Positions 35,820 to 51,999 of a stretch of 64,000 nt of DNA are shown piece by piece. Location of the stretch: NCBI GenBank assembly GCA_017516865.1, contig JAFXAU010000003.1, positions 11,909 to 75,908 of the forward strand, in the 5' to 3' direction. A program made the translations under genes and the position numbers. The stretch's first letter is position 1, and the number at the start of each line of letters is the position of its first letter. Source of the DNA: Bacteroidales bacterium (lineage in GTDB: Bacteria > Bacteroidota > Bacteroidia > Bacteroidales > UBA1715). The notes under the pieces were generated by a model. It saw only the letters and a list, made by a program, of their open reading frames with translations. It had not been told where the DNA came from and ran no database searches.

Positions 35820-36731
35820 ATGAAAAAAGCAATTCTAAAAATAGTATTTTTTTTACTTTGGCTGAATGGTGTTTTTTGCTGGCAGTCATGCTCGTCTTCT
35901 CAAACAGATTCCACAACACACAACCAAACAGATTCTTTAACATATCCCCCAATAGTAACGGAAAATTACACACCGCCACCGACGGATGAAGAATTATATT
36001 GGGACAGTCTTTTACATATTGGAGATAGTTTGTTGTTTAATTGTGATTGGGTGAAACCATATGCCAAAGCTTTATACAATGATTACATAAAAAGCACAGA
36101 AGAGGATGAGTTCTTTAGGTCTGATTTTTACTATGTTCGCTTTGAGGATTATTTCTTTTGTGATGATATTTTTGAAATGACGGTAGAAAATTGTCGAGAT
36201 TTGCTTGAGCGGATGTTGTACGACATTTCAGGCGAGGAAATCGAGAATACGTTATACTATCAAATAAATAATAGTTTTTTGTCACTTGACTTAAGATACA
36301 AAAATGATTATATTGGAGGATATGATGTTGGCTATGTAATTTATGACCATGGCATAGTTGAAGAAATGCACGGAGGTGCTGCCGGAGAAGAATTATTTAC
36401 TACAATTTATGGCTATTCTGTGTGTGATACAATGCATAATATCCATATGCGTTGGTCTGCTGTTTATGAGGGTGATGATCCTTCAACACTTGGGGATTAT
36501 GATGAGAAAACAAAATACTTAGTTGGTGACAAAGAAGTTTCAGAAGATTTTTACGAAAAATCATTAGAGCATTATAAGGATTCTGCGAAATCATTGTATG
36601 ATTCGCCTTGCGAACATTCAACAATAGCCATAGAGGCAATTTTTGATATGAATTCTATTGCAAAAATATTTGGATATAAAAATCCTAAGAGTAAAAAACA
36701 ATCTTTAAAAGAATTTATACGAGGAATATAA
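35820..36731 (+). CDS. Hypothetical lipoprotein
   Basis: Signal/lipobox MKKAILKIVFFLLWLNGVFCWQSC. Asp/Glu/Tyr-rich mature part with no motif. Confidence 0.5.
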   Translation: MKKAILKIVFFLLWLNGVFCWQSCSSSQTDSTTHNQTDSLTYPPIVTENYTPPPTDEELYWDSLLHIGDSLLFNCDWVKPYAKALYNDYIKSTEEDEFFRSDFYYVRFEDYFFCDDIFEMTVENCRDLLERMLYDISGEEIENTLYYQINNSFLSLDLRYKNDYIGGYDVGYVIYDHGIVEEMHGGAAGEELFTTIYGYSVCDTMHNIHMRWSAVYEGDDPSTLGDYDEKTKYLVGDKEVSEDFYEKSLEHYKDSAKSLYDSPCEHSTIAIEAIFDMNSIAKIFGYKNPKSKKQSLKEFIRGI

Positions 36732-37866
36732 ACCTGTGCATATCCAACCGCAAAATGTTTTTGATTTCGTCAACCGACGGTGTTTTTGCAAAAACAATGG
36801 CAAAAACTGGCTTTGTGGTGTGGTCAATTCTGCGGATTTCCAACGGATTCTGTATGTGTTGCAAATATGCGTCGAAATCAATGTGGGTGATAGCGTTCTT
36901 ATCAACGTCCGACGGGACTTCCGCCATAGTGAAATAGTATAACTCGTCGTCGGCGTTTTTCAAGATGTTCTTCCAGTCGGGTTTCAATTGGTTGAAATAA
37001 TATTCGTACACATTGATTCCCCACGCGTGCTGGGCAATGTCGGTGATGCACCAACCACAAAAACGGAGCGGATTCATTTCTATCGGAATAATTCTGTTTC
37101 CGTTAACACGCAGTTCCAAATGAAACGGAAAATTTTGAAAATCAAGCGTTTGACCTATTTTATCCAATAGCGATTGGAATGGTTCAAGGTATGTTTTTAT
37201 AATTTCTTTTGATGTGAAATATGCACGGTCGGAAACGTCTTTCTCGTCGAAAAACGGATGTTTGAAGATGTTCAAGATTGTAGATTTTCCATTTCCGTCG
37301 AAATAGGCGTCGATTGCAAATTCCTCACCGTCAATGAGTTCTTCGACTATAAAATTGTTTATGTCAACCACAGTGGCAGGAAACACGTCACGTATTTTTT
37401 CAATCTCCAACGCAAGCGTGTTAAGCGTTGCGTGCCATTCGTCGGCATTTCTTACGGGATATACGCCAAAACTGAGAAAACCCACGCTTGGTTTGAGAAT
37501 CAACGGAAACTTCAACGCAGCCGTGTCGATGGTGCGGAGTTGCTGGAACGTGCGTTCTTCAAAGAAATAGTCGGGGTACAAAGAACGCAATTTACGACGG
37601 AAAGCCGCCTTGTTCTTGCACAATTCAACCATCGTGGCGAGTTTTGTACCTGACAGTTTCTCTGTAATCCAACCAATGGCATTCTCGGAATTTGTGTAAA
37701 ACAATTTTTTTTCGTTAGAATAACAACGTACCGCTGAATCAGACGAAATCAATTGATTTGTAGGAATATAGCGACTTGCAAAATCGTTTTGCAACACGTT
37801 GAACGAATTTTTCTGTATGGTGTCGATTAAAAAATCCGACACGTATGGCTCTTCTAAAAGTATCAT
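36715..37866 (-). CDS. ATP-grasp domain protein
   Basis: LILKPSVGFLSFGVYPV...VEELIDGEEFAIDAYFDGNG is an ATP-grasp signature. The ATG at 37866 (MILLEEPY) is preferred. The 3' end overlaps the convergent gene by 17 nt. Confidence 0.6.
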   Translation of the reverse strand: MILLEEPYVSDFLIDTIQKNSFNVLQNDFASRYIPTNQLISSDSAVRCYSNEKKLFYTNSENAIGWITEKLSGTKLATMVELCKNKAAFRRKLRSLYPDYFFEERTFQQLRTIDTAALKFPLILKPSVGFLSFGVYPVRNADEWHATLNTLALEIEKIRDVFPATVVDINNFIVEELIDGEEFAIDAYFDGNGKSTILNIFKHPFFDEKDVSDRAYFTSKEIIKTYLEPFQSLLDKIGQTLDFQNFPFHLELRVNGNRIIPIEMNPLRFCGWCITDIAQHAWGINVYEYYFNQLKPDWKNILKNADDELYYFTMAEVPSDVDKNAITHIDFDAYLQHIQNPLEIRRIDHTTKPVFAIVFAKTPSVDEIKNILRLDMHRFIFLV

Positions 37867-38109
37867 ATAGTATTTGTTCCTTATTAAAAACGCCGCAAAT
37901 GTACTGCTAAAAACGGAACGGACAAACTTACGCATTCGCTAATTCTTATGATTCAAGTGTTCCTGTGTAGAATTATTTTTTGATTTTTATCGACTTTTCC
38001 CTATCTTTACGCAATGAAATTAAAATGCCAAACTTGTGAAAATTTATAACTTATTGTATATCAATAATATATGGGGGGGGTAAATTCTTCCTTTCATTAT
38101 TGTGATGTA

Positions 38110-38984: not shown

Positions 38985-40355
38985 ATGAAGAAATTAGTTT
39001 TAACATTGACTTTGGCGATTGCGGCATTGTTGTCGTTCGCCCAGATTCCGCAGACATTCAGTTACCAAGGCGTGGTGCGGGACGCGGAAAGCAAGATTGT
39101 GGCAGAAAAGCCGATTACGGTAAACGTGCAGATTTTGCAGGGAACCGACGAAGGAACGGAGGTTTACGCTGAAACTCACGAAGTTACCACCAACGCAAAC
39201 GGTTTGATGACCTTTGAATTGGGTAGCAAGAACGCTGAGGATTTTGCAAAAATTGATTGGAGCAATGCTCCATATTTTGTAAAAACCGTTGCCGAATTCG
39301 ACGGCAAGCAGATTTCGGGCGTAACCCCGCTGTTGGCAGTGCCATACGCACTCTATGCCGCAAAGGCAGGAAGCGCCGATGTTGATTTGAGCGGCTATGC
39401 CACAAAAGACGAGATTCCAAACGTGGAAGGTTTGGCAAGCGAAAATTATGTAAATGAAAAAGTTGCGGCAATTGAAATCCCCGAAGTGGATTTGAGCAAC
39501 TACTACCCCAAAACCGATGTTGATGCTTTGCTTGCTGAATTGAATGCAAAAATTGCGAAACTTGATTTACAATTGAATCCGCCAGAATCTGGTGTAATAG
39601 AATTCGCTTTTTCCGTTTCGGCAGAAAAACAGATTTATTTCTCGAAAGGAAACCTGCAATACCAAGCAAGCACAGGCACGTGGCGTTTTGCCGAACACCA
39701 ATATGACATTATCGGTGACGACAACGCAAACATTTCCTCTACAAACAGCGGTTGGATAGACCTGTTTGGTTGGGGGACAAGCGGCTACAACGGCAAAAAT
39801 CCATATATGACAAGCACGGGTTCCGATTATGGAGATGGTTACAACGACATTGCAGGCACGAACTATGATTGGGGCGTGTACAATGCAATTTCCAACGGTG
39901 GAAACCAAGCAGGACAATGGCGGACGCTTACAACCGATGAGTGGTATTATGTGATAAATACCCGTACAAACGCTTCGAGCAAATATGGTGTTGCAAGCGT
40001 TAATGGAGTGAATGGCTTGATATTGTTGCCCGACGAGTGGACATTGCCCGAAGGCATTGTGTTCACAAGCGGAGTGGCGAATGATGGACGTATCGAATAC
40101 TACTCGACTGTGAATAGTTATACAGCAAACGAATGGGCGAAGATGGAAGCAAATGGAGCCGTGTTTCTTCCTGCTGCTGGCCTCCGCGTCGAATCAAATA
40201 TGATCGATGTGGGTTTCATAGGCAACTACTGGTCGAGTTCGTATTACGACGGTCTCAATGCCTTCTGTCTGAGCTTCTGTAGCGACTTTGCGAGCAAGGG
40301 TATGGGCGGAAGAATAGCCGGGTACTCTGTCCGCCTTGTGCAAGAGGTGGAATAG
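38985..40355 (+). CDS. Secreted protein with a C-terminal FISUMP/DUF1566-like domain
   Basis: Signal peptide MKKLVLTLTLAIAALLSFAQ. C-terminal GNLQYQ...WIDLFGWGTSG...WRTLTTDEW...GAVFLPAAG...YWSSS...GYSVRLVQE pattern. Confidence 0.5.
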   Translation: MKKLVLTLTLAIAALLSFAQIPQTFSYQGVVRDAESKIVAEKPITVNVQILQGTDEGTEVYAETHEVTTNANGLMTFELGSKNAEDFAKIDWSNAPYFVKTVAEFDGKQISGVTPLLAVPYALYAAKAGSADVDLSGYATKDEIPNVEGLASENYVNEKVAAIEIPEVDLSNYYPKTDVDALLAELNAKIAKLDLQLNPPESGVIEFAFSVSAEKQIYFSKGNLQYQASTGTWRFAEHQYDIIGDDNANISSTNSGWIDLFGWGTSGYNGKNPYMTSTGSDYGDGYNDIAGTNYDWGVYNAISNGGNQAGQWRTLTTDEWYYVINTRTNASSKYGVASVNGVNGLILLPDEWTLPEGIVFTSGVANDGRIEYYSTVNSYTANEWAKMEANGAVFLPAAGLRVESNMIDVGFIGNYWSSSYYDGLNAFCLSFCSDFASKGMGGRIAGYSVRLVQEVE

Positions 40356-40386
40356 TTAGGAAGTAGGATTTAGGAGATAGGAAAGG

Positions 40387-40412
40387 GGCGGAAGAGATTT
40401 CGCTCCTTTTTT
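40387..40412 (+). terminator. Intrinsic terminator after 38985-40355
   Basis: gcggaagagatttcgc hairpin followed by tccttttttt. Confidence 0.55.
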
Positions 40413-40500
40413 TGTGTGCATTGTGGAACGCAAGTGAAAAAGGTTGTGGTACAATAAGATGAAAAAAGCTTAAGGTATTGACAACCGATGTAGAATTTTG

Positions 40501-40508
40501 TATATTTG
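40501..40508 (+). promoter_or_regulatory. -7 promoter box (TAtaTTTG) for the candidate sRNA
   Basis: tatatttg with an upstream ttg(aca) at about 40478. Confidence 0.4.
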
Positions 40509-40513
40509 CATTG

Positions 40514-40627
40514 TCCTTTGATACGGAAAGAGTAATCTTAGACGTCATCGGGCAAAGCCGATTAAATTCGTGAAACTTAGCACTAAGGTGACTGTAGTTA
40601 TGGAGAAAGGAGACTTTCTCCTTTTTT
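40514..40627 (+). ncRNA. Candidate ~115-nt small RNA (promoter-to-terminator unit with no credible ORF)
   Basis: Bounded by the -7 box at 40501-40508 and a strong terminator at 40602-40627. Internal hairpins atcgg/ccgat and cttag/ctaag. Confidence 0.35.
40602..40627 (+). terminator. Strong plus-strand intrinsic terminator
   Basis: ggagaaag-gaga-ctttctcc (8-bp stem, 4-nt loop) followed by T6. No T-run on the minus strand. Confidence 0.7.
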
Positions 40628-41309
40628 ATTTGTTTTGTATCCAAATTCGTCGGAAAAATTTTGGATAATCATTTTTCTGAACATCTACTGCGGTTGTCTT
40701 TATTAAACGGCTACCTTTAAATATAATCACATTTTTTAATTCACAATTTCGCTCAAATGCAGATTTTATTGTACGTGCTATGTAATCAACATCGTGTGTT
40801 CCAATAATATTTACTGCAATATGCTCTGATTGTTTGGCTCCTTTGTGCAAACGGTGATCAAGGGAATTTTTGCCGTTTAGTGTTTTGGCTTCAACGTAAA
40901 ATAAAAAACTCTTTTTTCGAACAATAAAATCAGCACTTGTGGAATGCATAGGATTTGGCAATAAGAAGACATCATATCCGTTTGCCACAAATTTCTGTGC
41001 TATTTGCAGATTATTAGGAATTTCGCCAGTTTTTAGTATTTCGTCATATTGGTTTTTGTACAAGGTAAAAATTTTGTTTTCCGTCGTAGAAAAACGTTGC
41101 ATTTCGGCAAAGTCAGGTTGGGCAACTATCCATTTCAACACATCAACTTTCTCACGATTGGTGGTAAACGAATAATAGTCTTTCAAGGCGTTGCTAATCG
41201 TAGTTCCTTGATAGACAACAGGCTTCTCATACTCGACTGCGGGTTCGCACACGAGTACAATTACATCTTCCGTACGCTCTGGGTACGGTGTTGGTTCTTT
41301 CTCAATCAT
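40626..41309 (-). CDS. Hypothetical protein with a C-terminal PD-(D/E)xK-like motif
   Basis: SADFIVRKKSFLFYVEAKT (D-x12-E-x-K). The ATG at 41309 lies 8 nt from a -7 box (caaatata, 41317-41324). Confidence 0.4.
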   Translation of the reverse strand: MIEKEPTPYPERTEDVIVLVCEPAVEYEKPVVYQGTTISNALKDYYSFTTNREKVDVLKWIVAQPDFAEMQRFSTTENKIFTLYKNQYDEILKTGEIPNNLQIAQKFVANGYDVFLLPNPMHSTSADFIVRKKSFLFYVEAKTLNGKNSLDHRLHKGAKQSEHIAVNIIGTHDVDYIARTIKSAFERNCELKNVIIFKGSRLIKTTAVDVQKNDYPKFFRRIWIQNK

Positions 41310-41372
41310 GATGCGACAAATATAGGAAAAATGGGGAACTCCACAATGTAGAAAGTTCAATAATACAAAAAC

Positions 41373-41404
41373 AAAGAACTACCGCCATAAGACGATAGTT
41401 CTTT
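41373..41404 (-). terminator. Minus-strand intrinsic terminator ending the cysE transcription unit
   Basis: The minus strand reads aaagaacta-N14-tagttcttt followed by gtttttgt. Confidence 0.5.
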
Positions 41405-41429
41405 CATTATTTTTTCTCATTGTAAAGAT

Positions 41430-41555
41430 TTAGTTTTTCCCAATAGGAACAAGAATCTTGACTGTTATATTCCGTCCCATATTATACACGCCTTGTTTTC
41501 CCGTCAACACGTTGACATCCGTGGCGACCATCGGTTTCGCCATCGGATTTGCCAT
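41430..41555 (-). CDS. Possible 41-aa small ORF between cysE and its terminator
   Basis: MANPMAKPMVATDVNVLTGKQGVYNMGRNITVKILVPIGKN. This is the only part of the 100-aa track ORF that does not overlap cysE. No known motif. Confidence 0.2.
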   Translation of the reverse strand: MANPMAKPMVATDVNVLTGKQGVYNMGRNITVKILVPIGKN

Positions 41556-41644
41556 GATGATGGTGCTCGACGTGGTGATGGGGTAACTTTCATCATCTGA
41601 GAAATCGGATTTATTGCCCGACAGAGCTGACAATCCCCTTTTTC

Positions 41645-42538
41645 TTATACTCCAGCCCCGTCGAAAAAGGTTTCCGAAACTGCTTTTTGCTGTACAATCT
41701 TCGAATGCGGCTTCACACTTTCGGTAACCCAAATGTTACCACCAATCACGGTGTCGTGCCCGATTGTAATACGTCCTAAAATCGACGAATTGGAATAAAT
41801 TGTGACATTGTCCTCTATTATCGGGTGGCGCGGGGTGTTCACCGGCTGACCGTTTTCGTTATAGGTAAACTTCTTCGCTCCTAACGTAACGCCCTGATAC
41901 AAAGTGACATGGTTGCCAATTATGCAGGTTTCTCCAATCACCACGCCCGTGCCATGGTCAATTGAAAAATATTCGCCGATTTTGGCTCCGGGATGAATGT
42001 CGATACCCGTCGCCGAATGTGCCATTTCCGTTATGATTCGCGGTAATACGGGAACTTTCAGCTCCAACAGTGCATGTGCCACACGATAGTGGACCATAAC
42101 CTGCACGATGGGATAGCAAAAAATTATCTCGCCGTACGACGTCACGGCAGGGTCGGAATCATACATTGCTTCAATATCGGTATAAAGCACACGTTTTATT
42201 TCGGGAATTTTTTCAAGAAACTGGAGCGTGATTTTTTCCACTTCCTCTACCGTTTTTCCTCCGTTGAAACTATTGAAACTCAGGGAAATCTGTTCCTCAA
42301 GTTCTTTCGCAATTTGTTCCACGTTTATCCCAATGCGGTACATACGGCTATCCTGACTGTTTATTTCGGCACCGAAAAAGCCGGGAAAGAAAATCTGCCT
42401 CAACAGTTCTATAATATGTTTCACAGCGTCAATCGAAGGCAGGCGGCATTCTTTTGCACGCATATTTTTTTCTTTTTCTTCAATGTTGGACAGTATGGCC
42501 ACATTTTTAGCCAAAATTTCTCGTTTATTCATTCTCAT
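41645..42538 (-). CDS. cysE: Serine O-acetyltransferase
   Basis: LbH hexapeptide region (GIDIHPGAKIGEYFSIDHGTGVVIGETCIIGNHVTLYQGVTLG) with a long Bacteroidetes-type N-terminal helical domain. Confidence 0.85.
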   Translation of the reverse strand: MRMNKREILAKNVAILSNIEEKEKNMRAKECRLPSIDAVKHIIELLRQIFFPGFFGAEINSQDSRMYRIGINVEQIAKELEEQISLSFNSFNGGKTVEEVEKITLQFLEKIPEIKRVLYTDIEAMYDSDPAVTSYGEIIFCYPIVQVMVHYRVAHALLELKVPVLPRIITEMAHSATGIDIHPGAKIGEYFSIDHGTGVVIGETCIIGNHVTLYQGVTLGAKKFTYNENGQPVNTPRHPIIEDNVTIYSNSSILGRITIGHDTVIGGNIWVTESVKPHSKIVQQKAVSETFFDGAGV

Positions 42539-42540
42539 CT

Positions 42541-42587
42541 TTTTTTATTAAAATAGGACGTAACAGATGGCTACGTCCTATTTTTCC
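42541..42587 (-). terminator. Hairpin (11-bp stem) flanked by A/T runs between the desulfurase gene and cysE
   Basis: aataggacgta-acagatggc-tacgtcctatt. The minus strand is followed by ttttaataaaaaa. Could act as a partial terminator or processing site. Confidence 0.45.
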
Positions 42588-42601
42588 ATAGTTAGTTGTC
42601 G

Positions 42602-44218
42602 TTATTTTGTGTTGCCCACAATTCGTCTGAGAGCATCCGTCAGGCGGTCAACTTCCTCGCGGGTGTTATAGACTGCAAACGTGGGACGGACAGACATTTC
42701 GTAGCCCAAGGCACGCAATGCCGGCTGTGCACAATGGTGTCCCGCACGAACGGCAATTCCTTCTTTGTCGAGCATTTGTCCGACTTGAGGAGCAGGAATG
42801 CCGGGAATGTCGAACGAAACCACGCTCACGCGTTTTTGGGGATTTCCCATAAGTGTGATGCCCGGAATGAGTGCGATTTGCTGGCGTGCGTACTCGGTCA
42901 GGTCATGTTCGTGGCGTTCAATATTGTGAATGCCGACACTGCTGACAAAATCAAGAGCGTAGCCCAAACCAATAGCGTCGGCAATGTTAGGCGTGCCTGC
43001 TTCGAAACGGGCAGGAGGTTCGTTGAACTCAGTTTTTTCTATGGTCACATCCTTTATCATATTGCCACCGCCCTGCCACGGGGGAAGTAGTTCCAACGCC
43101 TCTTTCTTGCCGTAAATCACGCCGATTCCCGACGGACCGTATATTTTGTGTCCCGAAAAAACAAAATAGTCGCAATCCATATCCTGCACGTCGATTTTGG
43201 TATGTGCAACCGACTGCGCCCCGTCAATCAGCACGGGAATGTTGTGCGAGTGGGCAATTTTTATGATGGTTTTCACATCGTTGATTGTCCCGAACGTATT
43301 GTTAACGTGACCCACCGAGATGAATTTCGTCCGTGGTGTTATCAGTCGCTCAAGCTCTGGCAAAATCAAGTCACCGTTTTTGTCAATAGGAATCGCCCGT
43401 AGTTCCGCATTGCGTTCCTTGCACACTTGCTGCCACGGCACAATGTTGGCGTGGTGGTCGAGTGTTGACACAATCACGTTGTCGTTCTCCAGCAGATACT
43501 TGCGTCCAAATGTCTGAGCCACAAGGTTGATACCTTCGGTTGTGCCACGAACAAACACGATGTTGTCGGTTGACGGAGCATTGATGAACCGTGCAACTTT
43601 CTCGCGTGCCGCCTCGTACTGGTCGGTAGCCCGTGCGGCAAGCGTGTGTGCTCCTCGGTGAATGTTTGAATAGTCAGTCTTGTAGAAATGGCTGAGACCG
43701 TCAATCACACGCAAGGGTTTTTGTGTGGATGCCCCATTGTCGAACCACACCAAATCTTTCCCGTTCACCTTCTGGTCGAGAATAGGGAACTGCTTCCGAA
43801 TCTCCGTTTGGTCTATCGTATCGGCTTCCTCGTAGTGCAGGTTGCGCACGAGTTCCGTTTCGGGAATGCCAATGCCAAATCCGTTGTCTGTCAGCAGACA
43901 CTTTTTCGAGTCTGGCTCCACATCGTCAGCGGAACGGGAATGCGTGATTTTCGAGGGGGCTTCGTATGTCTGTATATCTTCGCCAAAATACTTCTCCACT
44001 ACACTTTTGAACATTTCGGTTTCGCTTGCCGAAAGTTCACCCGCCAACGGAAACTGGGGCATTTGGAATCCGTCGAAATCAGCTTCGGAAGTCGTGGGAA
44101 CTTGCGCCCGCACCGGATTTTCATCTGGCACGGGGGCGTCGCCGTCGAGTCCAATTTGCGGAATATGTCCCAATTCGGGAATATCTGGTCGAAAATTATC
44201 TAATTCGTTACCGTACAT
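42602..44218 (-). CDS. SufS-type (class V aminotransferase) cysteine desulfurase with a ~135-aa disordered N-terminal extension; predicted encapsulin cargo
   Basis: PLP-Lys motif FSGHKIYGPSG and catalytic-Cys loop RAGHHCAQP. The N-terminal 1-135 is Pro/Asp/Glu-rich with no fold signature. The start overlaps the shell gene stop (TAATG). Confidence 0.85.
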   Translation of the reverse strand: MYGNELDNFRPDIPELGHIPQIGLDGDAPVPDENPVRAQVPTTSEADFDGFQMPQFPLAGELSASETEMFKSVVEKYFGEDIQTYEAPSKITHSRSADDVEPDSKKCLLTDNGFGIGIPETELVRNLHYEEADTIDQTEIRKQFPILDQKVNGKDLVWFDNGASTQKPLRVIDGLSHFYKTDYSNIHRGAHTLAARATDQYEAAREKVARFINAPSTDNIVFVRGTTEGINLVAQTFGRKYLLENDNVIVSTLDHHANIVPWQQVCKERNAELRAIPIDKNGDLILPELERLITPRTKFISVGHVNNTFGTINDVKTIIKIAHSHNIPVLIDGAQSVAHTKIDVQDMDCDYFVFSGHKIYGPSGIGVIYGKKEALELLPPWQGGGNMIKDVTIEKTEFNEPPARFEAGTPNIADAIGLGYALDFVSSVGIHNIERHEHDLTEYARQQIALIPGITLMGNPQKRVSVVSFDIPGIPAPQVGQMLDKEGIAVRAGHHCAQPALRALGYEMSVRPTFAVYNTREEVDRLTDALRRIVGNTK

Positions 44219-45657
44219 TATTTTTCAATTTGATTTCTATGTTGATAATCATGATAATAGCCAACTTCCACGTTTTCAAGAACAGCTATGGCATCGTCGG
44301 TAAGACTTGCAAGACTGAAATATTTTGTAAGCAAGTAGCTTGCCACGCCATATTGGTCTAATCCCATAAGCCGTGCCGACAAAGAAGGGGCAATTTCGCC
44401 AGGAATGCCTGCCTGATGCAGACCAACAACTCCTTGTTCCTTTTCGCCCGTGCGAACCAAAATAATATCGGTTGTGCCAACGCCGCGACTCGTCAGATAT
44501 TGGCCTTTAATCTCGACTTTGTCAGACGGAATGATTGGCACGCCACGCCACGTAATCACTTTTGTTCCAAACAAATCAATCGATACAGGCGGAACACCGC
44601 GCCACGTACATTCACGCTCGAAAGCGGCTATGGCACGTGGATGAGCGATGAAAAACGCCGGTTCTTTCCAAACGAGCGACAAAAGTTCGTCAAGGTCGTC
44701 GGGAGTCGGCGCACCATAGCGGGCGCTGATTTTGTAACCGGGAGCGGCCTGTGCCAACAAACCGAACTTTTTGTTGTTAATGAGTTCCCATTCCTGACGT
44801 TCCTTGATACTTTCGATTGAAAGACGCAACTGCTGTTCCAGCTGATTGTAAGGAGCGTTGAACAAATCGCTTACACGAGTATGTACACGGACAACCGTCT
44901 GTAATGTGTTGAGAGAATATTCCGTCGGATTTTCTTCGTAGTCGATATACGTTTCGGGAATAATGTTGTCCTCTTCGTGACCAGAAACAAGGTCGATGTG
45001 CTTTTCGCCGTGGTCGTTCACCGTTGCTTTCAGACGAAGATGGTCGTCAACCGCATTGTTGAACTGTTCGCGGAAATTCGGCTTTTCGTCGATTAATTTT
45101 TCAAGAGCGGGAGTTTCCAACTGGAGAAATGTGGAATTTGTGAGCGAACGAACCGTAACGGTTGAGTCTGCGGCACTAAGCAAATCGGATTCGCCAAAAT
45201 ATTCGCCTGCGCCCAACAATGCAATACGAAGTTCCTCGCCGTGGATTCCCGTGCTGATTACTTCTGCCTGTCCGCTTGCGACAATAAAGAATTTTTGTTT
45301 GTCCTTGCCTTGTGTGATAAGATTTTTACCACGTTTTACCTCTACGGGGACGAAATTCCGTGCAAGGTCGGCTACAATTTCCTGGTCAATGCTTGAAAAA
45401 AGCGGAATTTGACGCAAATCTTTCGCCGTGAAACTTGCCACACCGTCGAAATATTGAATAGCGATTCGGTCGGCTTTTTTCAGTTCCACCTTCGTGCGGT
45501 TTACACGGTATGTACCACTTTCCACCTGCGTCCAAGGTAATAATTTCAAGAGAAGACGAGGAGTAATTGACCCCATCTGCGGGGGTGTTTTGGTTGTGTT
45601 TGCAAGTTTTCGAGCCGTTGCTGTCGTAATACTGCGTTGAATGTTACTGTCTGCCAT
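44218..45657 (-). CDS. Family 2 encapsulin nanocompartment shell protein with an inserted cNMP-binding-like domain (2B architecture)
   Basis: N-arm ARKLANTTKTPPQMGSITPRLLLKLLPWTQVESGTYRVN. C-terminal GAPTPDDLDELLSLVWKEPAFFIAHPRAIAAFERECTWRGVPP...SLASLTDDAIAVLENVEV closely matches my recollection of SrpI-type family 2 shells. Residues ~78-200 are CRP-like (FGE). Confidence 0.85.
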   Translation of the reverse strand: MADSNIQRSITTATARKLANTTKTPPQMGSITPRLLLKLLPWTQVESGTYRVNRTKVELKKADRIAIQYFDGVASFTAKDLRQIPLFSSIDQEIVADLARNFVPVEVKRGKNLITQGKDKQKFFIVASGQAEVISTGIHGEELRIALLGAGEYFGESDLLSAADSTVTVRSLTNSTFLQLETPALEKLIDEKPNFREQFNNAVDDHLRLKATVNDHGEKHIDLVSGHEEDNIIPETYIDYEENPTEYSLNTLQTVVRVHTRVSDLFNAPYNQLEQQLRLSIESIKERQEWELINNKKFGLLAQAAPGYKISARYGAPTPDDLDELLSLVWKEPAFFIAHPRAIAAFERECTWRGVPPVSIDLFGTKVITWRGVPIIPSDKVEIKGQYLTSRGVGTTDIILVRTGEKEQGVVGLHQAGIPGEIAPSLSARLMGLDQYGVASYLLTKYFSLASLTDDAIAVLENVEVGYYHDYQHRNQIEK

Positions 45658-45687
45658 AATTTCTGTTTTAAAATGTTAATCAATATG

Positions 45688-46086
45688 TTATCTTAATTGT
45701 ATTTTTTCTTTGACTTCGCCGCCAACAATCGAAAAAGCGTTGAATACAGGTCTTTCGTCGGCAAGCGAGAGAATGAAATAGAGAATGTTCGGGTCGAACG
45801 CAAGCCGTATGTCTTCCGCCGACGGACGCGACGGCGAGGCGGGGTGGCTGTGCCAATTCCCTACAATCACCAATCCGTTTTGCCGTGCATATTTAACCGC
45901 CGCGAACTGCTCCTTCGGGTCGAAACTGAAATGCTCCTCCGACTGGTCGATGTTACGCATAGGATAGCTCACCGTGGCCGTTTTATTGTCGGGTCCCAAC
46001 AGATAGCCGCACGATTCAATCGGTGCGTCGTTCCGTGCTTGTGCCAACAGCGACTGGTACGCTTCTTCCGTTATTGTTATTTCCAT
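45688..46086 (-). CDS. JAMM/MPN+ (Mov34) metalloprotease, Mec+/HcyD/QbsD-like
   Basis: The upstream Glu (PIESCGYLLG) and HSHPASPSRPSAED (H-x-H-x7-S-x2-D) are present. 132 aa. Confidence 0.85.
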   Translation of the reverse strand: MEITITEEAYQSLLAQARNDAPIESCGYLLGPDNKTATVSYPMRNIDQSEEHFSFDPKEQFAAVKYARQNGLVIVGNWHSHPASPSRPSAEDIRLAFDPNILYFILSLADERPVFNAFSIVGGEVKEKIQLR

Positions 46087-46088
46087 CT

Positions 46089-46310
46089 TTATTTCCGAAT
46101 TGTAACTTTATGAATATTTCCTTCCACTTTGCTGATATCCAGCACCTTAAAACCCTGTTCGGTTGCCGAGCGTGGTACATTGTTGAGTGGTTCGCCATCG
46201 GTAAGCAACACTTCGAGAATGTCGCCTTCGGCTATTTGAGCCAATTTCAGTTTGGTCTTTACAAACGTCATTGGGCAATGTTCCTTTGTTATGTCTAACG
46301 TGTGGGTCAT
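46089..46310 (-). CDS. TusA/SirA-like sulfur carrier protein
   Basis: 73 aa with an N-terminal LDITKEHCPMTFVKTK (Cys-Pro motif of the TusA family). Confidence 0.75.
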   Translation of the reverse strand: MTHTLDITKEHCPMTFVKTKLKLAQIAEGDILEVLLTDGEPLNNVPRSATEQGFKVLDISKVEGNIHKVTIRK

Positions 46311-46350
46311 AGGAGTTAAAATTTAAGAGTTAAGAGTTATGAATGATTTG

Positions 46351-46830
46351 CTAAATGAACATGGTTCTTCCGCCTTCGGACAATTCCAAAAATGTTGCGA
46401 CACCCAGCGTGTCTTTCACTTCGTGGATAAAGTCAGATTGTTGAAGACCGAGTACGTGCATTGCCATTTCGCAAGCGTACAAGTTCACGCCGAGGGCTGT
46501 AGCCGCCTCCACAAGTTCCTCGAGCGTCGCCACGTTGTTTTTACGCATCAGCGAGCGGAAGATTTTTGGACCTATGCCACAAAAATTGAATCGGCTTGTA
46601 GGCGTCACATGCAAGCCGCCCATCATAAATCCGAACATTTTCGTGAGCCAGTTTCCGCCCACAAACGAGCGTCCTTTCTTTTGTTTTATGGCGTCGAGCC
46701 CCCAAAACGTAAAGAAAATGTTTACTTCGTAACCTACCGCGGCCGCTCCAGTCGCAAGCGTAAATACAGCCGTCAGTTTGTCAAATTCGCCAGAAAAGGC
46801 AATTAAGGAAAGTTTCTTTGTTTCTGCCAT
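46351..46830 (-). CDS. DsrE/DsrF/DrsH-like sulfur-relay family protein
   Basis: KKLSLIAFSGEFDKLTAVFTLATGAAAVGYEVNIFFTFWGL...ACEMAMHVLG...ATFLE matches the family pattern from memory. The ATG at 46830 is preferred. Confidence 0.65.
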   Translation of the reverse strand: MAETKKLSLIAFSGEFDKLTAVFTLATGAAAVGYEVNIFFTFWGLDAIKQKKGRSFVGGNWLTKMFGFMMGGLHVTPTSRFNFCGIGPKIFRSLMRKNNVATLEELVEAATALGVNLYACEMAMHVLGLQQSDFIHEVKDTLGVATFLELSEGGRTMFI

Positions 46831-46838
46831 AGTGATAT

Positions 46839-47654
46839 TTATTTTTTGTGAGAAGCAAGGTCGCACGTACCTTGTTCATAATCAATTAATTGAGTTATTG
46901 TTGGATGTTCACCGCAAAGAGAACAATTTTCACGTCGTTTTACGTTTATTTTTCTGAAATCCATTGTTTTTGCGTTGAATGTCAGCAATTTGTCGGTCAA
47001 CAATTCGCCAACGCCTGTTATGTATTTCAATGCTTCGGCGGCTTGGATTGTGCCCAACATTCCCGCAATTGCGCCCAGCACTCCCGCCTGCGAGCAAGTG
47101 GGAACCGCATTTGGTGGCGGCGGTGTTTTAAACATGCAACGGTAGCAAGCGTGTCCCGGAACGTATGTGAACGTTTGCCCTTCAAAACGGAGTATTCCAC
47201 CGTGGCTAAAAGGTTTTCCTGCCATTACGCACGCATCGTTAATGAGAAATTTCACAGGGAAATTATCGGTTCCGTCAATCACAAAATCGTAGTCTTTTAT
47301 AATGTCGAGAGCGTTGCTTGCCCATAGGAAATCCTTGTGGGTAACCACTTTCACGTGTGGATTTATTGCATTCATCGTCTCCTTTGCCGATTCAACCTTC
47401 GGTTTCCCGACATCGGGTGTCGTGTGGATAATTTGTCGCTGTAGATTGCTTAAATCAACCACATCGCCGTCAACTATTCCTATGGTTCCAATTCCTGCCG
47501 CAGCCAAGTACATGGCAACCGGGGCACCCAATCCGCCTGCTCCCACGACAAGAACTTTTGCCTCGCGTATTTTTTCCTGACCCTCGACGCCCACATCTTT
47601 AAGCAATATGTGACGGGAATAGCGGGTCAATTCTTCTTCCGTAAAATCAAACAT
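46839..47654 (-). CDS. MoeB/ThiF/HesA-type E1-like adenylyltransferase (no rhodanese domain)
   Basis: RYSRHILL...VLVVGAGGLGAP nucleotide loop, DLSNLQRQ, Zn motifs CYRC and CSLC, and conserved PTCSQAGVLG. Confidence 0.85.
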   Translation of the reverse strand: MFDFTEEELTRYSRHILLKDVGVEGQEKIREAKVLVVGAGGLGAPVAMYLAAAGIGTIGIVDGDVVDLSNLQRQIIHTTPDVGKPKVESAKETMNAINPHVKVVTHKDFLWASNALDIIKDYDFVIDGTDNFPVKFLINDACVMAGKPFSHGGILRFEGQTFTYVPGHACYRCMFKTPPPPNAVPTCSQAGVLGAIAGMLGTIQAAEALKYITGVGELLTDKLLTFNAKTMDFRKINVKRRENCSLCGEHPTITQLIDYEQGTCDLASHKK

Positions 47655-47691
47655 AGTTCGTGTGTTTTAAATTAAAGTTATGGATATGGTT

Positions 47692-47904
47692 TTACTTGCT
47701 TCCGCCTCCCATAAAGTACAGAAAATCAACGGAATCACCTTCGTTAAGAATGGTCGTGTCGAAATCCTCTCTATCGACAAATTCTTCGTTTACCTGCACA
47801 CTGACCATTTCTGGCTGTGCCACGTTATTTTGTTTTATCAGCTCCGCCACGGAAATGGGGAGTTTTACTTCTTGATTTTCACCGTTTACTGTAATTGTCG
47901 CCAT
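47692..47904 (-). CDS. ThiS/MoaD-family ubiquitin-like sulfur carrier with a C-terminal GG followed by extra residues (…MGGGSK)
   Basis: 70 aa. MATITVNGENQEV...ILNEGDSVDFLYFMGGGSK* is a ThiS-like beta-grasp pattern with the diglycine not at the terminus. Confidence 0.75.
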   Translation of the reverse strand: MATITVNGENQEVKLPISVAELIKQNNVAQPEMVSVQVNEEFVDREDFDTTILNEGDSVDFLYFMGGGSK

Positions 47905-47925
47905 AATACGTTGATTTTTAAACTG

Positions 47926-48856
47926 TTACTTACTAAATAATGTTGTTGACAGGTACCGTTCGCCAGAATCGGGCAAAAGAACCACAATTCGTTTTCCCTT
48001 GTTTTCGGGGCGCTTTGCAATTTCAATCGCGGCGTGCAAAGCAGCACCCGACGAAATCCCCACTAAAATACCTTCGCGTCGTGAAATGTAGCGTGCCGCC
48101 TCAAAAGCATCATCGTCGGCCACCCGGAATATTTCGTCGTACACTCGAGTGTTGAGAATTTTGGGAATAAATCCCGCTCCTATACCCTGTAGTTTGTGTG
48201 GTCCCGCCTTGTGTCCCGACAACACGGCACTTCCCAGTGGTTCCACTGCATGCCTTAGCGTCGGGATTTTGTTTTTTCAGCGTCTCTCCAATACCAGTAA
48301 TTGTTCCGCCTGTTCCGACTCCAGCGACAAAAAAGTCAATCTGCCCGTCGGTGTCGGCTATAATTTCTTGTGCCGTCGTTTCGATGTGGGCTTCGGGATT
48401 GGCAGGATTTTCGAACTGTTGCGGAATGAATGCATTGCCAATCTCCGCCGCCAATTCCTTTGCTTTCCTAATAGATCCTGGCATTCCCTCGTAAGCGGGC
48501 GTGAGCACCAGTTCCGCACCCAACGCCTTCAGCAGAGAACGACGTTCTTTGCTCATGGAGTCGGGCATCGTAAGAATCAATCTGTAGCCACGAGTGGCGG
48601 CAACCAAAGCCAGCCCGATGCCAGTGTTGCCGCTCGTTGGTTCTATAATTACCGTTCGGCTGTCAATCAACCCTTTTTTCTCGGCTTTTTCTATAAGAAA
48701 CAGCCCAACGCGGTCCTTCACACTTCGTCCCGGATTCAAAAACTCAAGTTTCGCCACAATTTGCGCTTTTGTTTTCTGCTCCTTCTCGATTTTCGAAAGT
48801 TCCAAAAGTGGCGTACCACCTATCAATTGTGTTATATCGCCTGCTATCTTTGCCAT
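47926..48856 (-). pseudogene. cysK: Cysteine synthase (O-acetylserine sulfhydrylase) CysK/CysM-like, split by a frameshift near 48247-48251
   Basis: The N-part (48856 downwards) has SVKDR (PLP Lys), TSGNTG and GVGTGGTITG up to ...KKQNPDAKA. The C-part ([12 protein letters not shown]...GISSGAAL...) continues in another frame (ORF 47926-48246). Confidence 0.8.
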
Positions 48857-48887
48857 TTTCTTAGACCTTTGTTTTACAATCACGATG

Positions 48888-48895
48888 CAAATATA
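48888..48895 (-). promoter_or_regulatory. -7 promoter box (reverse complement TAtaTTTG) for the sulfur-relay/encapsulin operon
   Basis: caaatata on the plus strand, 32 nt upstream of the cysK ATG at 48856. Confidence 0.45.
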
Positions 48896-48948
48896 AAACA
48901 ATTAACATACAAACCTACTATGTTAATAGGTTATTTTTAAAAATTTTT

Positions 48949-48956
48949 TATTTTTG
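48949..48956 (+). promoter_or_regulatory. -7 promoter box (TAttTTTG) for the divergent MetY-like gene
   Basis: tatttttg lies 34 nt upstream of the ATG at 48990. Confidence 0.45.
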
Positions 48957-48989
48957 CACTGTTAAACGACAATTATACAATATTATAAT

Positions 48990-50171
48990 ATGGAAAAACA
49001 AACAAAAACAGTACGCACGTCGCAAAAGATTTCCGACGCATACGGAGCACTCAACATGCCAGTTTATAATTCGGCCGCCTACGGCTTTCCTTCGGCAAAA
49101 GCAATGGCAGACGCTTTTGTGGGCAGAACCGATTCTCCAACGTATTCACGTGTGTCTAATCCTACGGTTGCATATTTTGAAGAACGGGTTGCCCAACTCA
49201 GTGGAGCAAAGCACGTTTTTGCCTTTAACTCGGGTATGGCGGCGATTAGCTGCACGCTTTTTGCACTCGCTGCGAGCGGAAAAAACATCGTTACTTCGGC
49301 ACATCTGTTCGGGAACACCGTTTCGTTATTAACGAACACTTTGGGACGGTTCGGAGTTGAAACACGCTTTGTCGATTTGCTCGACAGCGAGGCGGTTGCA
49401 AATGCAATAGACGACAACACGGCCTGCGTGTTTCTTGAAATCATCACCAATCCGCAACTCGAGGTTGTTGACATTCAGAGTCTTTCGTCAATCACCAAAA
49501 AGAAAAACATTCCGCTTGTCGCCGACACCACTATTATTCCGTTCACGCAATTTAGCGCGGAAGCGTTAGGAGTTGACATTGAAGTGCTTTCGAGCACAAA
49601 ATACATTTCGGGCGGAGCGACGACATTGGGCGGCTTGGTGCTTGACTATGGAAATTTCCCGCAATTATACCGTTATATGAAGTTCGAACTTCTTTATAAC
49701 ATTGGTAGTTATATGACGCCTCAGGTCGCTTTTATGCAGACACTTGGCCTTGAAACATTGGATATGCGTTACCGCACGCAGGCAAACAACGCCCTCGAAC
49801 TTGCCCGAAGGTTGAAACAAGTTCCCGAAATTATAGATGTAAATTACGTCGGACTGAGCGACAACGTGTTCCACACGCTGGCAAAAGCTCAATTTGGAGG
49901 AACATTTGGAGCAATGCTCACCATTGATTTGGAAGACAAACAGCATGCGTTTGCTTTTATCGATAATTTGAAACTTATCAGTCGCGCAACCAATCTTTTC
50001 GACAGCAAATCGCTGGCTATCCACCCTGCATCAACAATATTTGGCGCTTTTGCAGGTTCACAGCGTCGCGCTATGAACGTACGCGACAACACCGTGCGAC
50101 TCAGCATAGGATTGGAAGACGTGAAAGATTTATATGACGATATTGTTCAGGCACTAAAAGGATCTATTTAA
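48990..50171 (+). CDS. Cys/Met-metabolism PLP enzyme (O-acetylhomoserine sulfhydrylase MetY-like / gamma-lyase family)
   Basis: YSRVSNPT, SGMAAI and PLP-Lys motif LSSTKYISG. 393 aa. Confidence 0.75.
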   Translation: MEKQTKTVRTSQKISDAYGALNMPVYNSAAYGFPSAKAMADAFVGRTDSPTYSRVSNPTVAYFEERVAQLSGAKHVFAFNSGMAAISCTLFALAASGKNIVTSAHLFGNTVSLLTNTLGRFGVETRFVDLLDSEAVANAIDDNTACVFLEIITNPQLEVVDIQSLSSITKKKNIPLVADTTIIPFTQFSAEALGVDIEVLSSTKYISGGATTLGGLVLDYGNFPQLYRYMKFELLYNIGSYMTPQVAFMQTLGLETLDMRYRTQANNALELARRLKQVPEIIDVNYVGLSDNVFHTLAKAQFGGTFGAMLTIDLEDKQHAFAFIDNLKLISRATNLFDSKSLAIHPASTIFGAFAGSQRRAMNVRDNTVRLSIGLEDVKDLYDDIVQALKGSI

Positions 50172-50341
50172 AGACCATTATAAAAATTCATGTCATATTG
50201 AGAATTGCTAAAACGATATGAATGTATGCGACGTATGTTACATGTGATTTTATCTATGATTTGGCAATAATACCTAAAAATGATTATTGGAGCAAAAAAC
50301 GAAAATGTGTACATTCGCAGGGTAAAAATTAGCGTAAAGCA

Positions 50342-51301
50342 ATGAAGAATCTCAAGATGTACGAGCCGAGCGACAAGATGATAACGCTTATAAAGGACAA
50401 CTACAGCGTGTTGCAGGCTCTGGGCTCATTCGGCATCAATCTTGGCTTTGGCGACAAAACCGTAAACGAAACCTGCGAACTAAACGGTGTTGACACATAC
50501 ACATTTCTTGCCGTGGTCAATCTCCAACTGAACAACGTGGGCAATTTCGAAGACGATGAAAAAATCAGCGTTCCCACATTGCTACGCTATTTGAAGGCAA
50601 GTCACGCCTATTATCTTGATTTTCAGCTCCCTTTCATTCGTCGCGAACTTGCGGAAAGCATTGATGAAAACGACAAAATGGGCAGACTAATACTCAAATT
50701 TTATGATGACTACGCGCACGAAGTGCAACAGCACATGAAATACGAGGATAAAACGCTGTTCCCCTACGTTCAGTCGCTTATTGAAGGCCGTCCCGCAAGC
50801 AACTACACAATAGAAACGTTTTCGAAACATCACGAACAGACCGACAAGAAATTGCGTGAATTGAAGTTGATGATTATCAAATATTTACCTACCGACGCAA
50901 AACGTAATAATTTACTTACGTCTACGCTGTACGACATCTACAACAACGAAGAATGGCTCCGTCATCACGCCGATGTCGAAGACTTTATATTTACGCCAGC
51001 CATCCGCCGTATGGAACACCAACACAAACAAAATGACGTTACGAAGAACATCACCACCATGATTCGTAACTCCGACACCGAGCAAAGCGAACCAATCTCC
51101 GAACGCGAAAAGGATGTCATCATTGGCGTTGTGCAAGGCTTGCAAAATAAGGAAATCGCCGACAAACTGTGCATTTCGGTCAACACCGTCATTACCCATA
51201 GACGAAACATTGCCAGAAAACTGCAAATTCACTCGCCATCTGGACTTACCATTTATGCCATCGTCAACGGACTGGTTGATATTTCAAGCGTGAAACTATA
51301 A
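50342..51301 (+). CDS. LuxR-type HTH regulator with a hemerythrin/RIC-like N-terminal sensor region
   Basis: HEVQQHMKYEDKTLFPYV, HHEQTDKKL and RHHADVEDFIF form an H/E hemerythrin-like pattern. C-terminal EREKDVIIGVVQGLQNKEIADKLCISVNTVITHRRNI is a LuxR HTH. Confidence 0.6.
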   Translation: MKNLKMYEPSDKMITLIKDNYSVLQALGSFGINLGFGDKTVNETCELNGVDTYTFLAVVNLQLNNVGNFEDDEKISVPTLLRYLKASHAYYLDFQLPFIRRELAESIDENDKMGRLILKFYDDYAHEVQQHMKYEDKTLFPYVQSLIEGRPASNYTIETFSKHHEQTDKKLRELKLMIIKYLPTDAKRNNLLTSTLYDIYNNEEWLRHHADVEDFIFTPAIRRMEHQHKQNDVTKNITTMIRNSDTEQSEPISEREKDVIIGVVQGLQNKEIADKLCISVNTVITHRRNIARKLQIHSPSGLTIYAIVNGLVDISSVKL

Positions 51302-51408
51302 ATTACACATTGAACATTTCGTTTGTGAATATTTAGTTTATTGTTTTTTCTTATAGATAACCATCGTTTTCTTGTATATTCTTACTTTTGTTTCGTGATT
51401 TTATTGAA

Positions 51409-51999
51409 ATGAAGGTATTTCCAAAAATAAATTCCCTTTCAAACGACGATTTGGCAACCTACCCGTACAATTCCTTTGCAGGAAAAATCACGGTGATTTC
51501 CGATGTGCGGAAGGTTGACGATGCTGTTGCATACCTCTCAAAGTGCAGCGTGCTTGGCTTTGATACGGAAACACGCCCGACATTCACAAAAAATCACACT
51601 AACTCGGTGGCTCTCTTACAATTAAGCGACGAAAAACAAGCATTTTTGTTTCGTCTCAATATGATTGGACTGCCCCCATCGCTTACGAATTTGCTTGCCA
51701 ACGAATCAATCAAAAAAATTGGCGTTGCTGTTCACGACGACATTAAAGGATTACAGAAACTCTCCCCTTTCAATCCTAAAAATTTCATTGACTTACAAAC
51801 AATTGCAAAACAATTGCACATCGAAGCCATGGGTTTACGAAAACTGACCCCTATCGCATTGGGATTCAAGATTTCAAAGCGCCAACAGTTGTCGAATTGG
51901 GAAAACGTTTTTCTTTCGCGGGCGCAACGACAATACGCCGCCACCGACGCATGGGTAAGCCTACGGATTTATCAACAATTACAACCCTTTACTTTATGA
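51409..51999 (+). CDS. 3'-5' exonuclease (RNase D / DnaQ-like DEDDy)
   Basis: LGFDTETRP (ExoI), AVHDDIKGL (ExoII) and QYAATDAW (ExoIII). The stop overlaps the rlmI start (ATGA). Confidence 0.7.
   Translation: MKVFPKINSLSNDDLATYPYNSFAGKITVISDVRKVDDAVAYLSKCSVLGFDTETRPTFTKNHTNSVALLQLSDEKQAFLFRLNMIGLPPSLTNLLANESIKKIGVAVHDDIKGLQKLSPFNPKNFIDLQTIAKQLHIEAMGLRKLTPIALGFKISKRQQLSNWENVFLSRAQRQYAATDAWVSLRIYQQLQPFTL

Follow-up and report, generated by a model that had tools for sequence, protein, structure and literature searches.

A desulfurase-encapsulin gene cluster of rumen and gut Bacteroidales linked to a predicted thiocarboxylate sulfur relay

How does sulfur that has been stored inside a bacterial protein shell get out again, and where does it go? 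Few bacterial protein compartments are commoner than desulfurase encapsulins. Their storage of elemental sulfur was shown in 2024, and the route of its remobilization was acknowledged to be unknown, with a rhodanese proposed for it (PMC10836720). Here we consider a gene cluster in a 64,000-nucleotide stretch of a Bacteroidales genome (assembly GCA_017516865.1, contig JAFXAU010000003.1, positions 11,909 to 75,908), which we refer to as the window. An earlier note on this DNA had read the cluster as nine co-directional minus-strand genes with tiny gaps or overlaps, joining a module of encapsulin shell and cysteine desulfurase to a protein-thiocarboxylate relay and a cysteine-synthesis set. The open reading frames bear this out: nine genes, all on the minus strand, span 41645-48856 with intergenic spacings of −1 to 63 nt. 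In the direction of reading, they encode a cysteine synthase (CysK), a ThiS-like sulfur carrier, an E1 adenylyltransferase, a DsrE2B-like sulfurtransferase, TusA, a JAMM metalloprotease, the encapsulin shell, the desulfurase, and a serine O-acetyltransferase (CysE), while a divergent gene encodes a MetY-type sulfhydrylase. Family calls were made by scans with Pfam and curated NCBIfam hidden Markov models (HMMs) at the model cutoffs, and they uphold the gene identities proposed for the cluster in all but one respect, namely that the shell belongs to encapsulin family 2B and not to the SrpI-type family 2A.

The strongest evidence that these genes belong together comes from their conservation. 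Searching one genome per GTDB species for the shell protein gave 544 relatives, of which we retained the best 80. These are at least 80% identical and all stem from metagenome-assembled genomes (MAGs) of rumen and gut Bacteroidales (Prevotella, Paludibacteraceae, Salinivirgaceae, Bacteroidaceae, and Parabacteroides). We placed the window proteins on the relatives’ loci by tblastn and counted linkage in the 40 species-level loci that extend at least 4.5 kb upstream and at least 5.5 kb downstream of the shell gene. The desulfurase, the DsrE2-like protein, and TusA were each linked to the shell in 40/40 loci, cysK in 39/40, ThiS, E1, and JAMM in 37/40 (the three together), MetY in 34/40, and cysE in 6/40. 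This linkage persists through at least 12 different gene orders. The ThiS-E1-JAMM block may precede cysK, follow the desulfurase, or be inverted, and 19 of the 40 loci show the order of the window, where dsrE2-tusA sits between E1 and JAMM, i.e., inside the thiocarboxylate block. Because the linkage has survived so much shuffling in dozens of species, a functional tie is strongly evidenced and chance adjacency, which the earlier note had named as the alternative, is ruled out. The physical coupling of the encapsulin and thiocarboxylate systems that it had described is thus real. Its list of operon members held for cysK, dsrE2, and tusA, which are near-invariant, but not for cysE, which is rarely linked and stands behind a terminator-like hairpin in the window.

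Outside this group, the partners were not found. A metagenome contig that carries Bacteroidota-type secretion-tail proteins, a relative of the nearest outside shell representative, and a family 2B locus on a Kitasatospora plasmid encode shell and desulfurase only; among family 2A loci, one on an Azospirillum plasmid encodes shell, desulfurase, and cysE, and one on a Methylosinus plasmid shell and desulfurase. None of these four loci has TusA, DsrE2, CysK, or ThiS, and in total five desulfurase-encapsulin loci from four outgroup lineages were without the partners. A rhodanese gene appeared neither in the tblastn survey of the relatives, nor in 11 further loci scanned with Pfam, nor among the inserted genes of seven loci.

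What kind of shell is it? The protein (44218..45657) consists of an N-arm, an inserted cyclic nucleotide monophosphate (cNMP)-binding-fold domain, and an HK97-like domain, and it passes the family 2B model NF041163 with 561.7 bits (cutoff 400). PF19307 (SrpI-like HK97-fold) scores 374.6 bits and PF00027 (cNMP_binding) 58.4 bits over residues 105-191, the inserted domain as a whole covering residues ~76-210. The solved shells 9BJE, 6X8M, and 8T6R align with it, and the Streptomyces family 2B structure 9BJE does so over the full shell length, inserted domain included (378 bits). The shell lacks the arginine that contacts the cAMP phosphate, and so do the Streptomyces family 2B shells, whose cNMP-fold domains were shown to lie on the exterior and not to bind cAMP (PMC11550324). 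Of all parts of the shell protein, the inserted domain varies most among 75 orthologues: its mean column conservation is 0.79, compared with 0.93 in the HK97 domain and 0.98 in the linker (residues 211-235). Any two Bacteroidales shells share at least 76% identity, and none of the closest outside representatives of full length, taken from a library clustered at 50% identity, exceeds 48%, so the Bacteroidales shells form a discrete clade. We also considered a phage capsid remnant and rejected it, as the shell passes the family 2B model, has metabolic neighbors, and has no relative in 2.9 million viral contigs, and there are no phage genes near the cluster. Some distant family 2 shells are unusually long (P0285, 848 aa; P0289, 617 aa; P0301, 997 aa); P0301 carries Laminin_G_3 lectin-like repeats behind a family 2A-type shell domain, and the extra segments of P0285 and P0289 have no Pfam match.

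The start codon of the desulfurase gene (42602..44218) overlaps the stop codon of the shell gene. The enzyme, 538 aa long, is of SufS type (TIGR01979 SufS, 544 versus a cutoff of 475; Aminotran_5, 472 bits) and retains the pyridoxal phosphate-binding lysine (SGHK) and the catalytic cysteine (GHHCA). It is preceded by an N-terminal extension of ~135 aa (78-163 aa in relatives) that is acidic, proline-rich, and poorly conserved apart from two motifs, F.xVVxKYF.E and DNGFGIGIPETxxVRNLHYEEADT. A variable N-terminal domain with short motifs is the described pattern of family 2 cargo-loading domains (PMC8049743, PMC10836720), and we predict that the desulfurase is encapsulin cargo, loaded via this disordered domain. 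The family 2A cargo model NF041166 was not passed (690.5 versus 800), with the catalytic domain alone aligning (residues 123-533).

Which proteins could take sulfur from such a cargo? TusA (46089..46310; PF01206, 78.8 bits versus a cutoff of 28.6) has the active-site motif CPMT at residues 12-15, which is kept in 71/75 orthologues. Its neighbor, the DsrE2B-like sulfurtransferase (46351..46830; PF13686, 136.9 bits versus a cutoff of 25), shows the cysteine motif YACE in 74/74 orthologues, and its closest solved relative is 2QS7 (SSO1126), a protein classed as DsrE2B by Liu et al. (PMC4175335). It stays below the NCBIfam DsrE2 cutoff (73.7 versus 210), and no Dsr or Hdr genes are linked with it. 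Within the set, conservation is highest in the shell, the DsrE2-like protein, and E1; with a cross-species median identity of 86 to 92%, the DsrE2-like protein is the best-conserved accessory gene product, on par with the shell and above the desulfurase, TusA, ThiS, and JAMM, which hints at a tightly constrained interaction. A query with it for encapsulin-free contexts was uninformative, since the best 120 matches are all at least 83% identical. Apparent DsrE2 gene fusions were rejected, the longer database entries being start-codon or assembly artefacts. For TusA, one fusion was observed: directly 3′ of the shell and desulfurase genes, a Parabacteroides MAG (L035:11991-14342) encodes a 783-aa sulfite/nitrite-reductase-like protein (NIR_SIR and a ferredoxin-like half domain) with a C-terminal TusA domain, unique among 94 loci. 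Through this fusion, TusA is connected with another supply of reduced sulfur within one cluster, reminiscent of the sulfite reductase in the Wolinella cluster discussed below.

The thiocarboxylate block supplies a carrier, its activating enzyme, and a protease. The ThiS-like carrier (47692..47904; PF02597; TIGR01683, 67.5 versus 37.45) is a pro-protein ending in GGGSK, and in 64/64 orthologues a variable tail of one or more residues follows GG(G), so that a processing protease is needed. The JAMM/MPN+ metalloprotease (45688..46086; PF14464, Prok-JAB, 88.8 bits) has the signature ESCG … HSHP…S..D, of which HxH…S..D is kept in 64/65 orthologues. The E1 adenylyltransferase (46839..47654) is a MoeB/ThiF-type protein of 271 aa (PF00899, 284 bits) with two CxxC motifs and a crossover-loop cysteine (PTCSQAGVLG), and its closest solved relative is Escherichia coli MoeB (1JW9). 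It covers positions 15-274 of the 392 in the MoeZ model, i.e., the ThiF domain alone. The absence of a rhodanese domain, noted before for this one protein, extends to 65/65 E1 orthologues, which fall into length bins of 260-299 aa (64 of them below 280 aa) and all carry the two CxxC motifs.

Two sulfur-incorporating enzymes then determine what the product might be. The cysK gene (cysteine synthase A, 47926..48856) is split into two frames, 48856-48260 and 48246-47926. The frameshift reported earlier is real: alignment with six relatives places a 2-nt deletion near 48247. However, all six metagenome contigs that encode an identical shell protein (L081-L086) have an intact cysK of 310 aa, so the lesion is either private to the window sequence or an assembly error, and we read the deletion at 48240-48255 as either a strain-specific pseudogene or such an error. 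Intact CysK from the same species passes TIGR01139 cysK (454 versus 351) and fails the cysM model (282.6 versus 394.2), and its closest solved relatives are of CysK1 type; by these models, the CysK of the cluster is the canonical sulfide-using type and not CysM. A pathway of the CysM type, as in Mycobacterium tuberculosis, is rejected on these scores together with the rhodanese-less E1. CysK might accept a thiocarboxylate, but nothing here points to it.

The MetY-type O-acetylhomoserine sulfhydrylase (48990..50171, plus strand; PF01053, 327 bits) is encoded divergently, with the −7 box TATTTTTG (48949..48956, plus strand) facing it. Its closest solved relative by far is 3RI6, the O-acetylhomoserine sulfhydrylase of Wolinella succinogenes (328 bits versus 218 for the next, with about half of the aligned positions identical), which we take to act in the HcyS thiocarboxylate pathway (Krishnamoorthy and Begley 2011; Tran et al. 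2011). Judged by its closest relative, the MetY of the window appears to be of the Wolinella thiocarboxylate-dependent kind. A PatB-family C-S lyase gene (TIGR04350, 467 bits, at L048:7070-8245) recurs in at least 10 loci (also L049, L055, L062, L068, L015, L016, L017, L022, and L010), placed between MetY and cysK or after the desulfurase; L010 additionally has a second Cys_Met_Meta_PP enzyme. Adjoining MetY in the window, a protein with a hemerythrin domain and a LuxR-type helix-turn-helix (HTH) (50342..51301, plus strand) weakly matches the RIC iron-sulfur repair family. Its gene is present in L081-L086, i.e., in the same species only, with no match in the loci of other species, and it is possibly a local oxygen-, NO-, or iron-sensing regulator of the divergent genes.

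Is the cluster one transcription unit? The Bacteroidetes-type −7 box TATATTTG (48888..48895, minus strand), 32 nt 5′ of the cysK start, is a candidate operon promoter, and we confirmed its position. The cluster has one further intergenic minus-strand match, TAGGTTTG at 48910-48917, and the sole other one overlaps the start codon of E1. Across the whole window, 76 matches were found versus 64.8 expected. Since the motif is not enriched, TATATTTG is weak evidence for one promoter, and the earlier claim that a single box drives all nine genes leans mainly on the gene spacing. The hairpin that had been noticed between the desulfurase and cysE is real (42550..42584, minus strand): it is terminator-like, with a 15-bp stem followed by UUUU (−19.7 kcal/mol, z = −5.5). 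It was found in the same species and is absent from other species, and we rejected it as a conserved regulatory element. CysE itself (41645..42538) is of cysE/EpsC type, with Hexapep and SATase_N domains and a score of 150.8 versus 150 for NF041874 (SAT EpsC). A second terminator-like hairpin 3′ of cysE (41373..41404, minus strand; −19.7 kcal/mol, z = −6.0) is the probable end of the transcription unit. Riboswitch control was rejected, as no Rfam family of any kind matches 41000-51500, even at E up to 1.

We propose that the locus encodes a sulfur depot feeding a protein-bound relay whose end product is homocysteine, and we rate this reading, with its sulfur transfer, as having an even chance of being right. 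We infer shell assembly, cargo loading, and every sulfur-transfer step from the family assignments of the individual proteins. First, CysK would make cysteine from sulfide and the O-acetylserine supplied by CysE, going by family membership. The desulfurase, packaged in the family 2B shell by way of its disordered N-terminal domain, would then turn cysteine into alanine, with the sulfur held as persulfide or elemental sulfur, by homology to family 2A. The DsrE2B-like protein and TusA, whose gene linkage is invariant, would replace the family 2A rhodanese and accept the sulfur as cysteine persulfides; a small persulfide or polysulfide molecule may have to ferry it across the shell, or the two proteins may have to dock on the outside. 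Meanwhile, JAMM would trim the ThiS-like pro-protein to expose Gly-Gly, the rhodanese-less E1 would adenylate it, and persulfide from TusA/DsrE2 would convert the adenylated ThiS to the thiocarboxylate. By analogy with HcyS/HcyF/HcyD/MetY, the Wolinella-type MetY would finally join the thiocarboxylate with O-acetylhomoserine, and JAMM would free homocysteine for methionine synthesis. The net outcome would be a store-and-deliver route from cysteine sulfur to methionine without free sulfide. Homocysteine as the product also offers the best resolution of a puzzle raised in the earlier note, i.e., that cysteine seemed to be consumed to make cysteine, for which the note had itself offered the homocysteine alternative: with CysK of the sulfide type and MetY of the Wolinella type, cysteine becomes an intermediate and homocysteine the likely product, which accounts for the presence of a sulfide-using cysteine synthase. 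A more specific version, in which the depot is gated and TusA-DsrE2B draw sulfur from it, perhaps by docking on the external cNMP-fold domains, and deliver it to the thiocarboxylate carrier for homocysteine, is more tentative, and we would sooner expect it to fail than to hold.

Several observations weigh against the proposed relay. Free sulfide is plentiful in the rumen and can thiolate adenylated carriers in vitro, so the relay is perhaps unneeded. We infer co-transcription from the gene spacing and one promoter-like box, and the cysK copy of the window is disrupted. Neither TusA nor DsrE2 has a recognizable loading domain, and both are too large for the known shell pores, which leaves their contact with the cargo unexplained. 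The prototype DsrE2B of Metallosphaera was unreactive with every sulfur compound tried (PMC4175335). Finally, the full relay set, which had been read as a unit, does form one in the 37 loci counted above but not everywhere. Dysgonomonas-like loci (a protein cluster containing Dysgonomonas, 77% shell identity) and a second carrier, the cultured Viscerimonas tarda, have only a compact cysK-dsrE2-tusA-enc-CD unit (enc, shell; CD, cysteine desulfurase), flanked by unrelated polysaccharide-utilization genes and with no ThiS, E1, JAMM, or MetY within 10 kb. From these loci, we conclude that the five genes are the invariant core and the thiocarboxylate block an addition that dominates in rumen lineages, and also that the relay need not end at ThiS.

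This last finding favors the rival that survives best, namely a co-regulated sulfur island without hand-off, in which the encapsulin and HcyS-type modules merely share a sulfur signal, ThiS is thiolated by free sulfide, and TusA/DsrE2 serve other targets, for example tRNA thiolation or molybdenum cofactor. The five-gene core can evidently stand alone, the ThiS block relocates as a unit, and other cysteine and methionine enzymes accrete, such as the PatB lyase and the second Cys_Met_Meta_PP enzyme, as would be expected of a metabolic island. On the other hand, an island would not lead one to expect a 37/40 linkage through many rearrangements, tighter than that of cysE, nor dsrE2-tusA interleaved between E1 and JAMM in 19/40 loci, nor an E1 that lacks the rhodanese domain, the usual supplier of persulfide. 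We consider it a plausible rival, though one more likely wrong than right.

Less likely still, and in our view rather improbable, is a detoxification sink, where CysK captures excess sulfide as cysteine, whose sulfur the encapsulated desulfurase then puts out of reach in inert elemental form, with TusA/DsrE2 merely tuning or priming the system and the amino-acid genes adjacent through shared substrates. Such a role was suggested for family 2A systems (PMC10836720), and it would suit both the ordinary sulfide-using CysK and the sulfide-rich, cysteine-reduced habitats of the hosts (rumen and gut MAGs). Yet it leaves the conserved linkage of ThiS, E1, JAMM, and MetY and the invariant pair of persulfide carriers unexplained, and the characterized family 2A systems are induced by sulfur starvation, not excess (PMC10836720).

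A role of ThiS, E1, and JAMM in thiamin or molybdopterin synthesis, or in SAMP-type protein tagging, is very improbable. ThiS does pass the TIGR01683 thiS model, E1 resembles MoeB and the SAMP-activating UbaA, and JAMM resembles a desampylase, the E1 and JAMM likenesses being below cutoff. However, no surveyed cluster contains thiG, thiH, thiC, or moaE, the carrier requires C-terminal processing, and the conserved partner is a Wolinella-type MetY; a thiamin or molybdopterin function was rejected as the principal interpretation on the missing thiG/thiH/moaE and the processed tail. Chance adjacency or a phage capsid remnant has next to no probability left, given partners conserved in 40/40 and 37/40 species-level genomes and a shell that scores above the family 2B cutoff, has no counterpart among the viral contigs, and has no phage genes nearby.

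What would the sulfur depot with its protein-bound relay mean? It is a hypothesis resting entirely on genomic context, for a widely conserved gene set and an acknowledged open question. The operon type singles out TusA and the DsrE2B-like protein as candidate exit carriers for stored sulfur and, for most rumen lineages, suggests where the sulfur may go (via ThiS thiocarboxylate and MetY to homocysteine), and it makes the question of sulfur exit directly testable. If the proposal is true, it would assign a role to DsrE2B, a protein so far without one, and supply a rhodanese-less E1 with a persulfide donor; it would also place a desulfurase encapsulin of family 2B, with its non-cAMP ligand domain, in a physiological setting for the first time. 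In its more tentative gated version, it would be the first full path known to lead from sulfur stored in an encapsulin to a specific metabolite, and it would add a third means of passing cysteine sulfur on to methionine, next to transsulfuration through cystathionine and direct sulfhydrylation by free sulfide. As the genes are carried by abundant Bacteroidales of the rumen and gut (Prevotella, Paludibacteraceae, and Bacteroidaceae), with the core present in cultured Dysgonomonas and Viscerimonas tarda, the sulfur and methionine economy of rumen and gut communities may depend on this operon type.

The surroundings of the cluster vary. Paired genes for a 398-aa ATP-grasp protein and a 251-aa esterase lie beside or inside the cluster in L004:13059-15015, L007, L008, L021, L030, and L031; the ATP-grasp gene of the window (36715-37935) is not an orthologue of the former (23% identity). 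The region 3′ of cysE differs between the identical-shell contigs L081-L086, with a Zip transporter, a methyltransferase, or other genes; in the window, 38985-41400 encodes a 226-aa protein with a weak, below-cutoff match to CdiA C-terminal toxins and a 456-aa protein without a Pfam match. Unrelated genes upstream encode a Schlafen AlbA_2/HATPase_c_4/HTH protein and a BspA-type leucine-rich-repeat protein (28207-29577 and 30597-31952).

How does the cluster compare with known systems? It shares several features with the family 2A desulfurase encapsulins (SrpI of Synechococcus elongatus and its counterpart of Acinetobacter baumannii), for which sulfur storage is a demonstrated activity (PMC10836720). 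Common to both are an HK97-like SrpI-type shell domain (~55% identical there), a cargo gene of SufS type that immediately follows the shell gene and whose product has a disordered loading domain at its N terminus, and an operon that includes a cysteine-synthesis enzyme and a sulfurtransferase. In contrast to family 2A, the shell of the window has the inserted cNMP-binding-fold domain that makes it family 2B, the N-terminal domain of the cargo is shorter, the sulfurtransferase is a TusA and DsrE2B-like pair instead of a rhodanese, the cysteine-synthesis partner is CysK (39/40) and not an acetyltransferase (6/40), and a thiocarboxylate pathway is attached. Of the canonical desulfurase-encapsulin operon, the window shares the serine O-acetyltransferase but not the rhodanese. 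The Streptomyces family 2B shells of 2-methylisoborneol and geosmin operons (9BJE, 9BHU) align over the full length and likewise lack the cAMP-phosphate arginine, whereas their cargo is a terpene cyclase in place of a desulfurase and they are built from two shell genes instead of one.

In the encapsulin literature that we examined, no characterized family 2B desulfurase system was found. Andreas and Giessen counted 199 family 2B desulfurase operons, and named acetyltransferase and rhodanese as the enriched partners (PMC8346489); the legend of a supplementary figure makes generic mention of sulfur, cofactor, and amino-acid genes near desulfurase operons. Benisch et al. left family 2B out and defined four operon types from rhodanese and acetyltransferase (PMC10836720). 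The earlier note knew of no description of such a coupling, and our full-text search agrees: it returned no relevant paper that joins an encapsulin with TusA or with a thiocarboxylate, and none on TusA/DsrE2 with a thiocarboxylate, HcyS, or CysO.

Among thiocarboxylate pathways, the M. tuberculosis CysO/CysM/Mec+/MoeZ system likewise has a ThiS-like carrier, an E1, a JAMM protease, and a cysteine synthase in one cluster, whereas the synthase in the window is of CysK type and the E1 lacks the rhodanese domain of MoeZ. The HcyS/HcyF/HcyD/MetY system of Wolinella also includes a ThiS-like carrier with a removable tail, an E1, and a JAMM protease, and its MetY is the closest solved relative of the one in the window. 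Krishnamoorthy and Begley in 2011 reportedly tied the Wolinella cluster to sulfate assimilation and sulfite reductase. Here, the sulfur-source genes are instead an encapsulated desulfurase and TusA/DsrE2, and a sulfite-reductase-like gene occurs in one relative alone (L035), fused to TusA. The adjacent dsrE2-type and tusA genes with conserved active-site cysteines resemble the rhd-tusA-dsrE2 and dsrE3A-dsrE2B-tusA relays of the sulfur oxidizers Allochromatium and Metallosphaera. Unlike those relays, the pair in the window has no Hdr-like or Dsr complex, its hosts are fermentative gut anaerobes, and it sits in an assimilatory cluster together with an encapsulin. Overall, the cluster is not a new category of system; it is a new operon type, a desulfurase encapsulin joined to an HcyS-type pathway.

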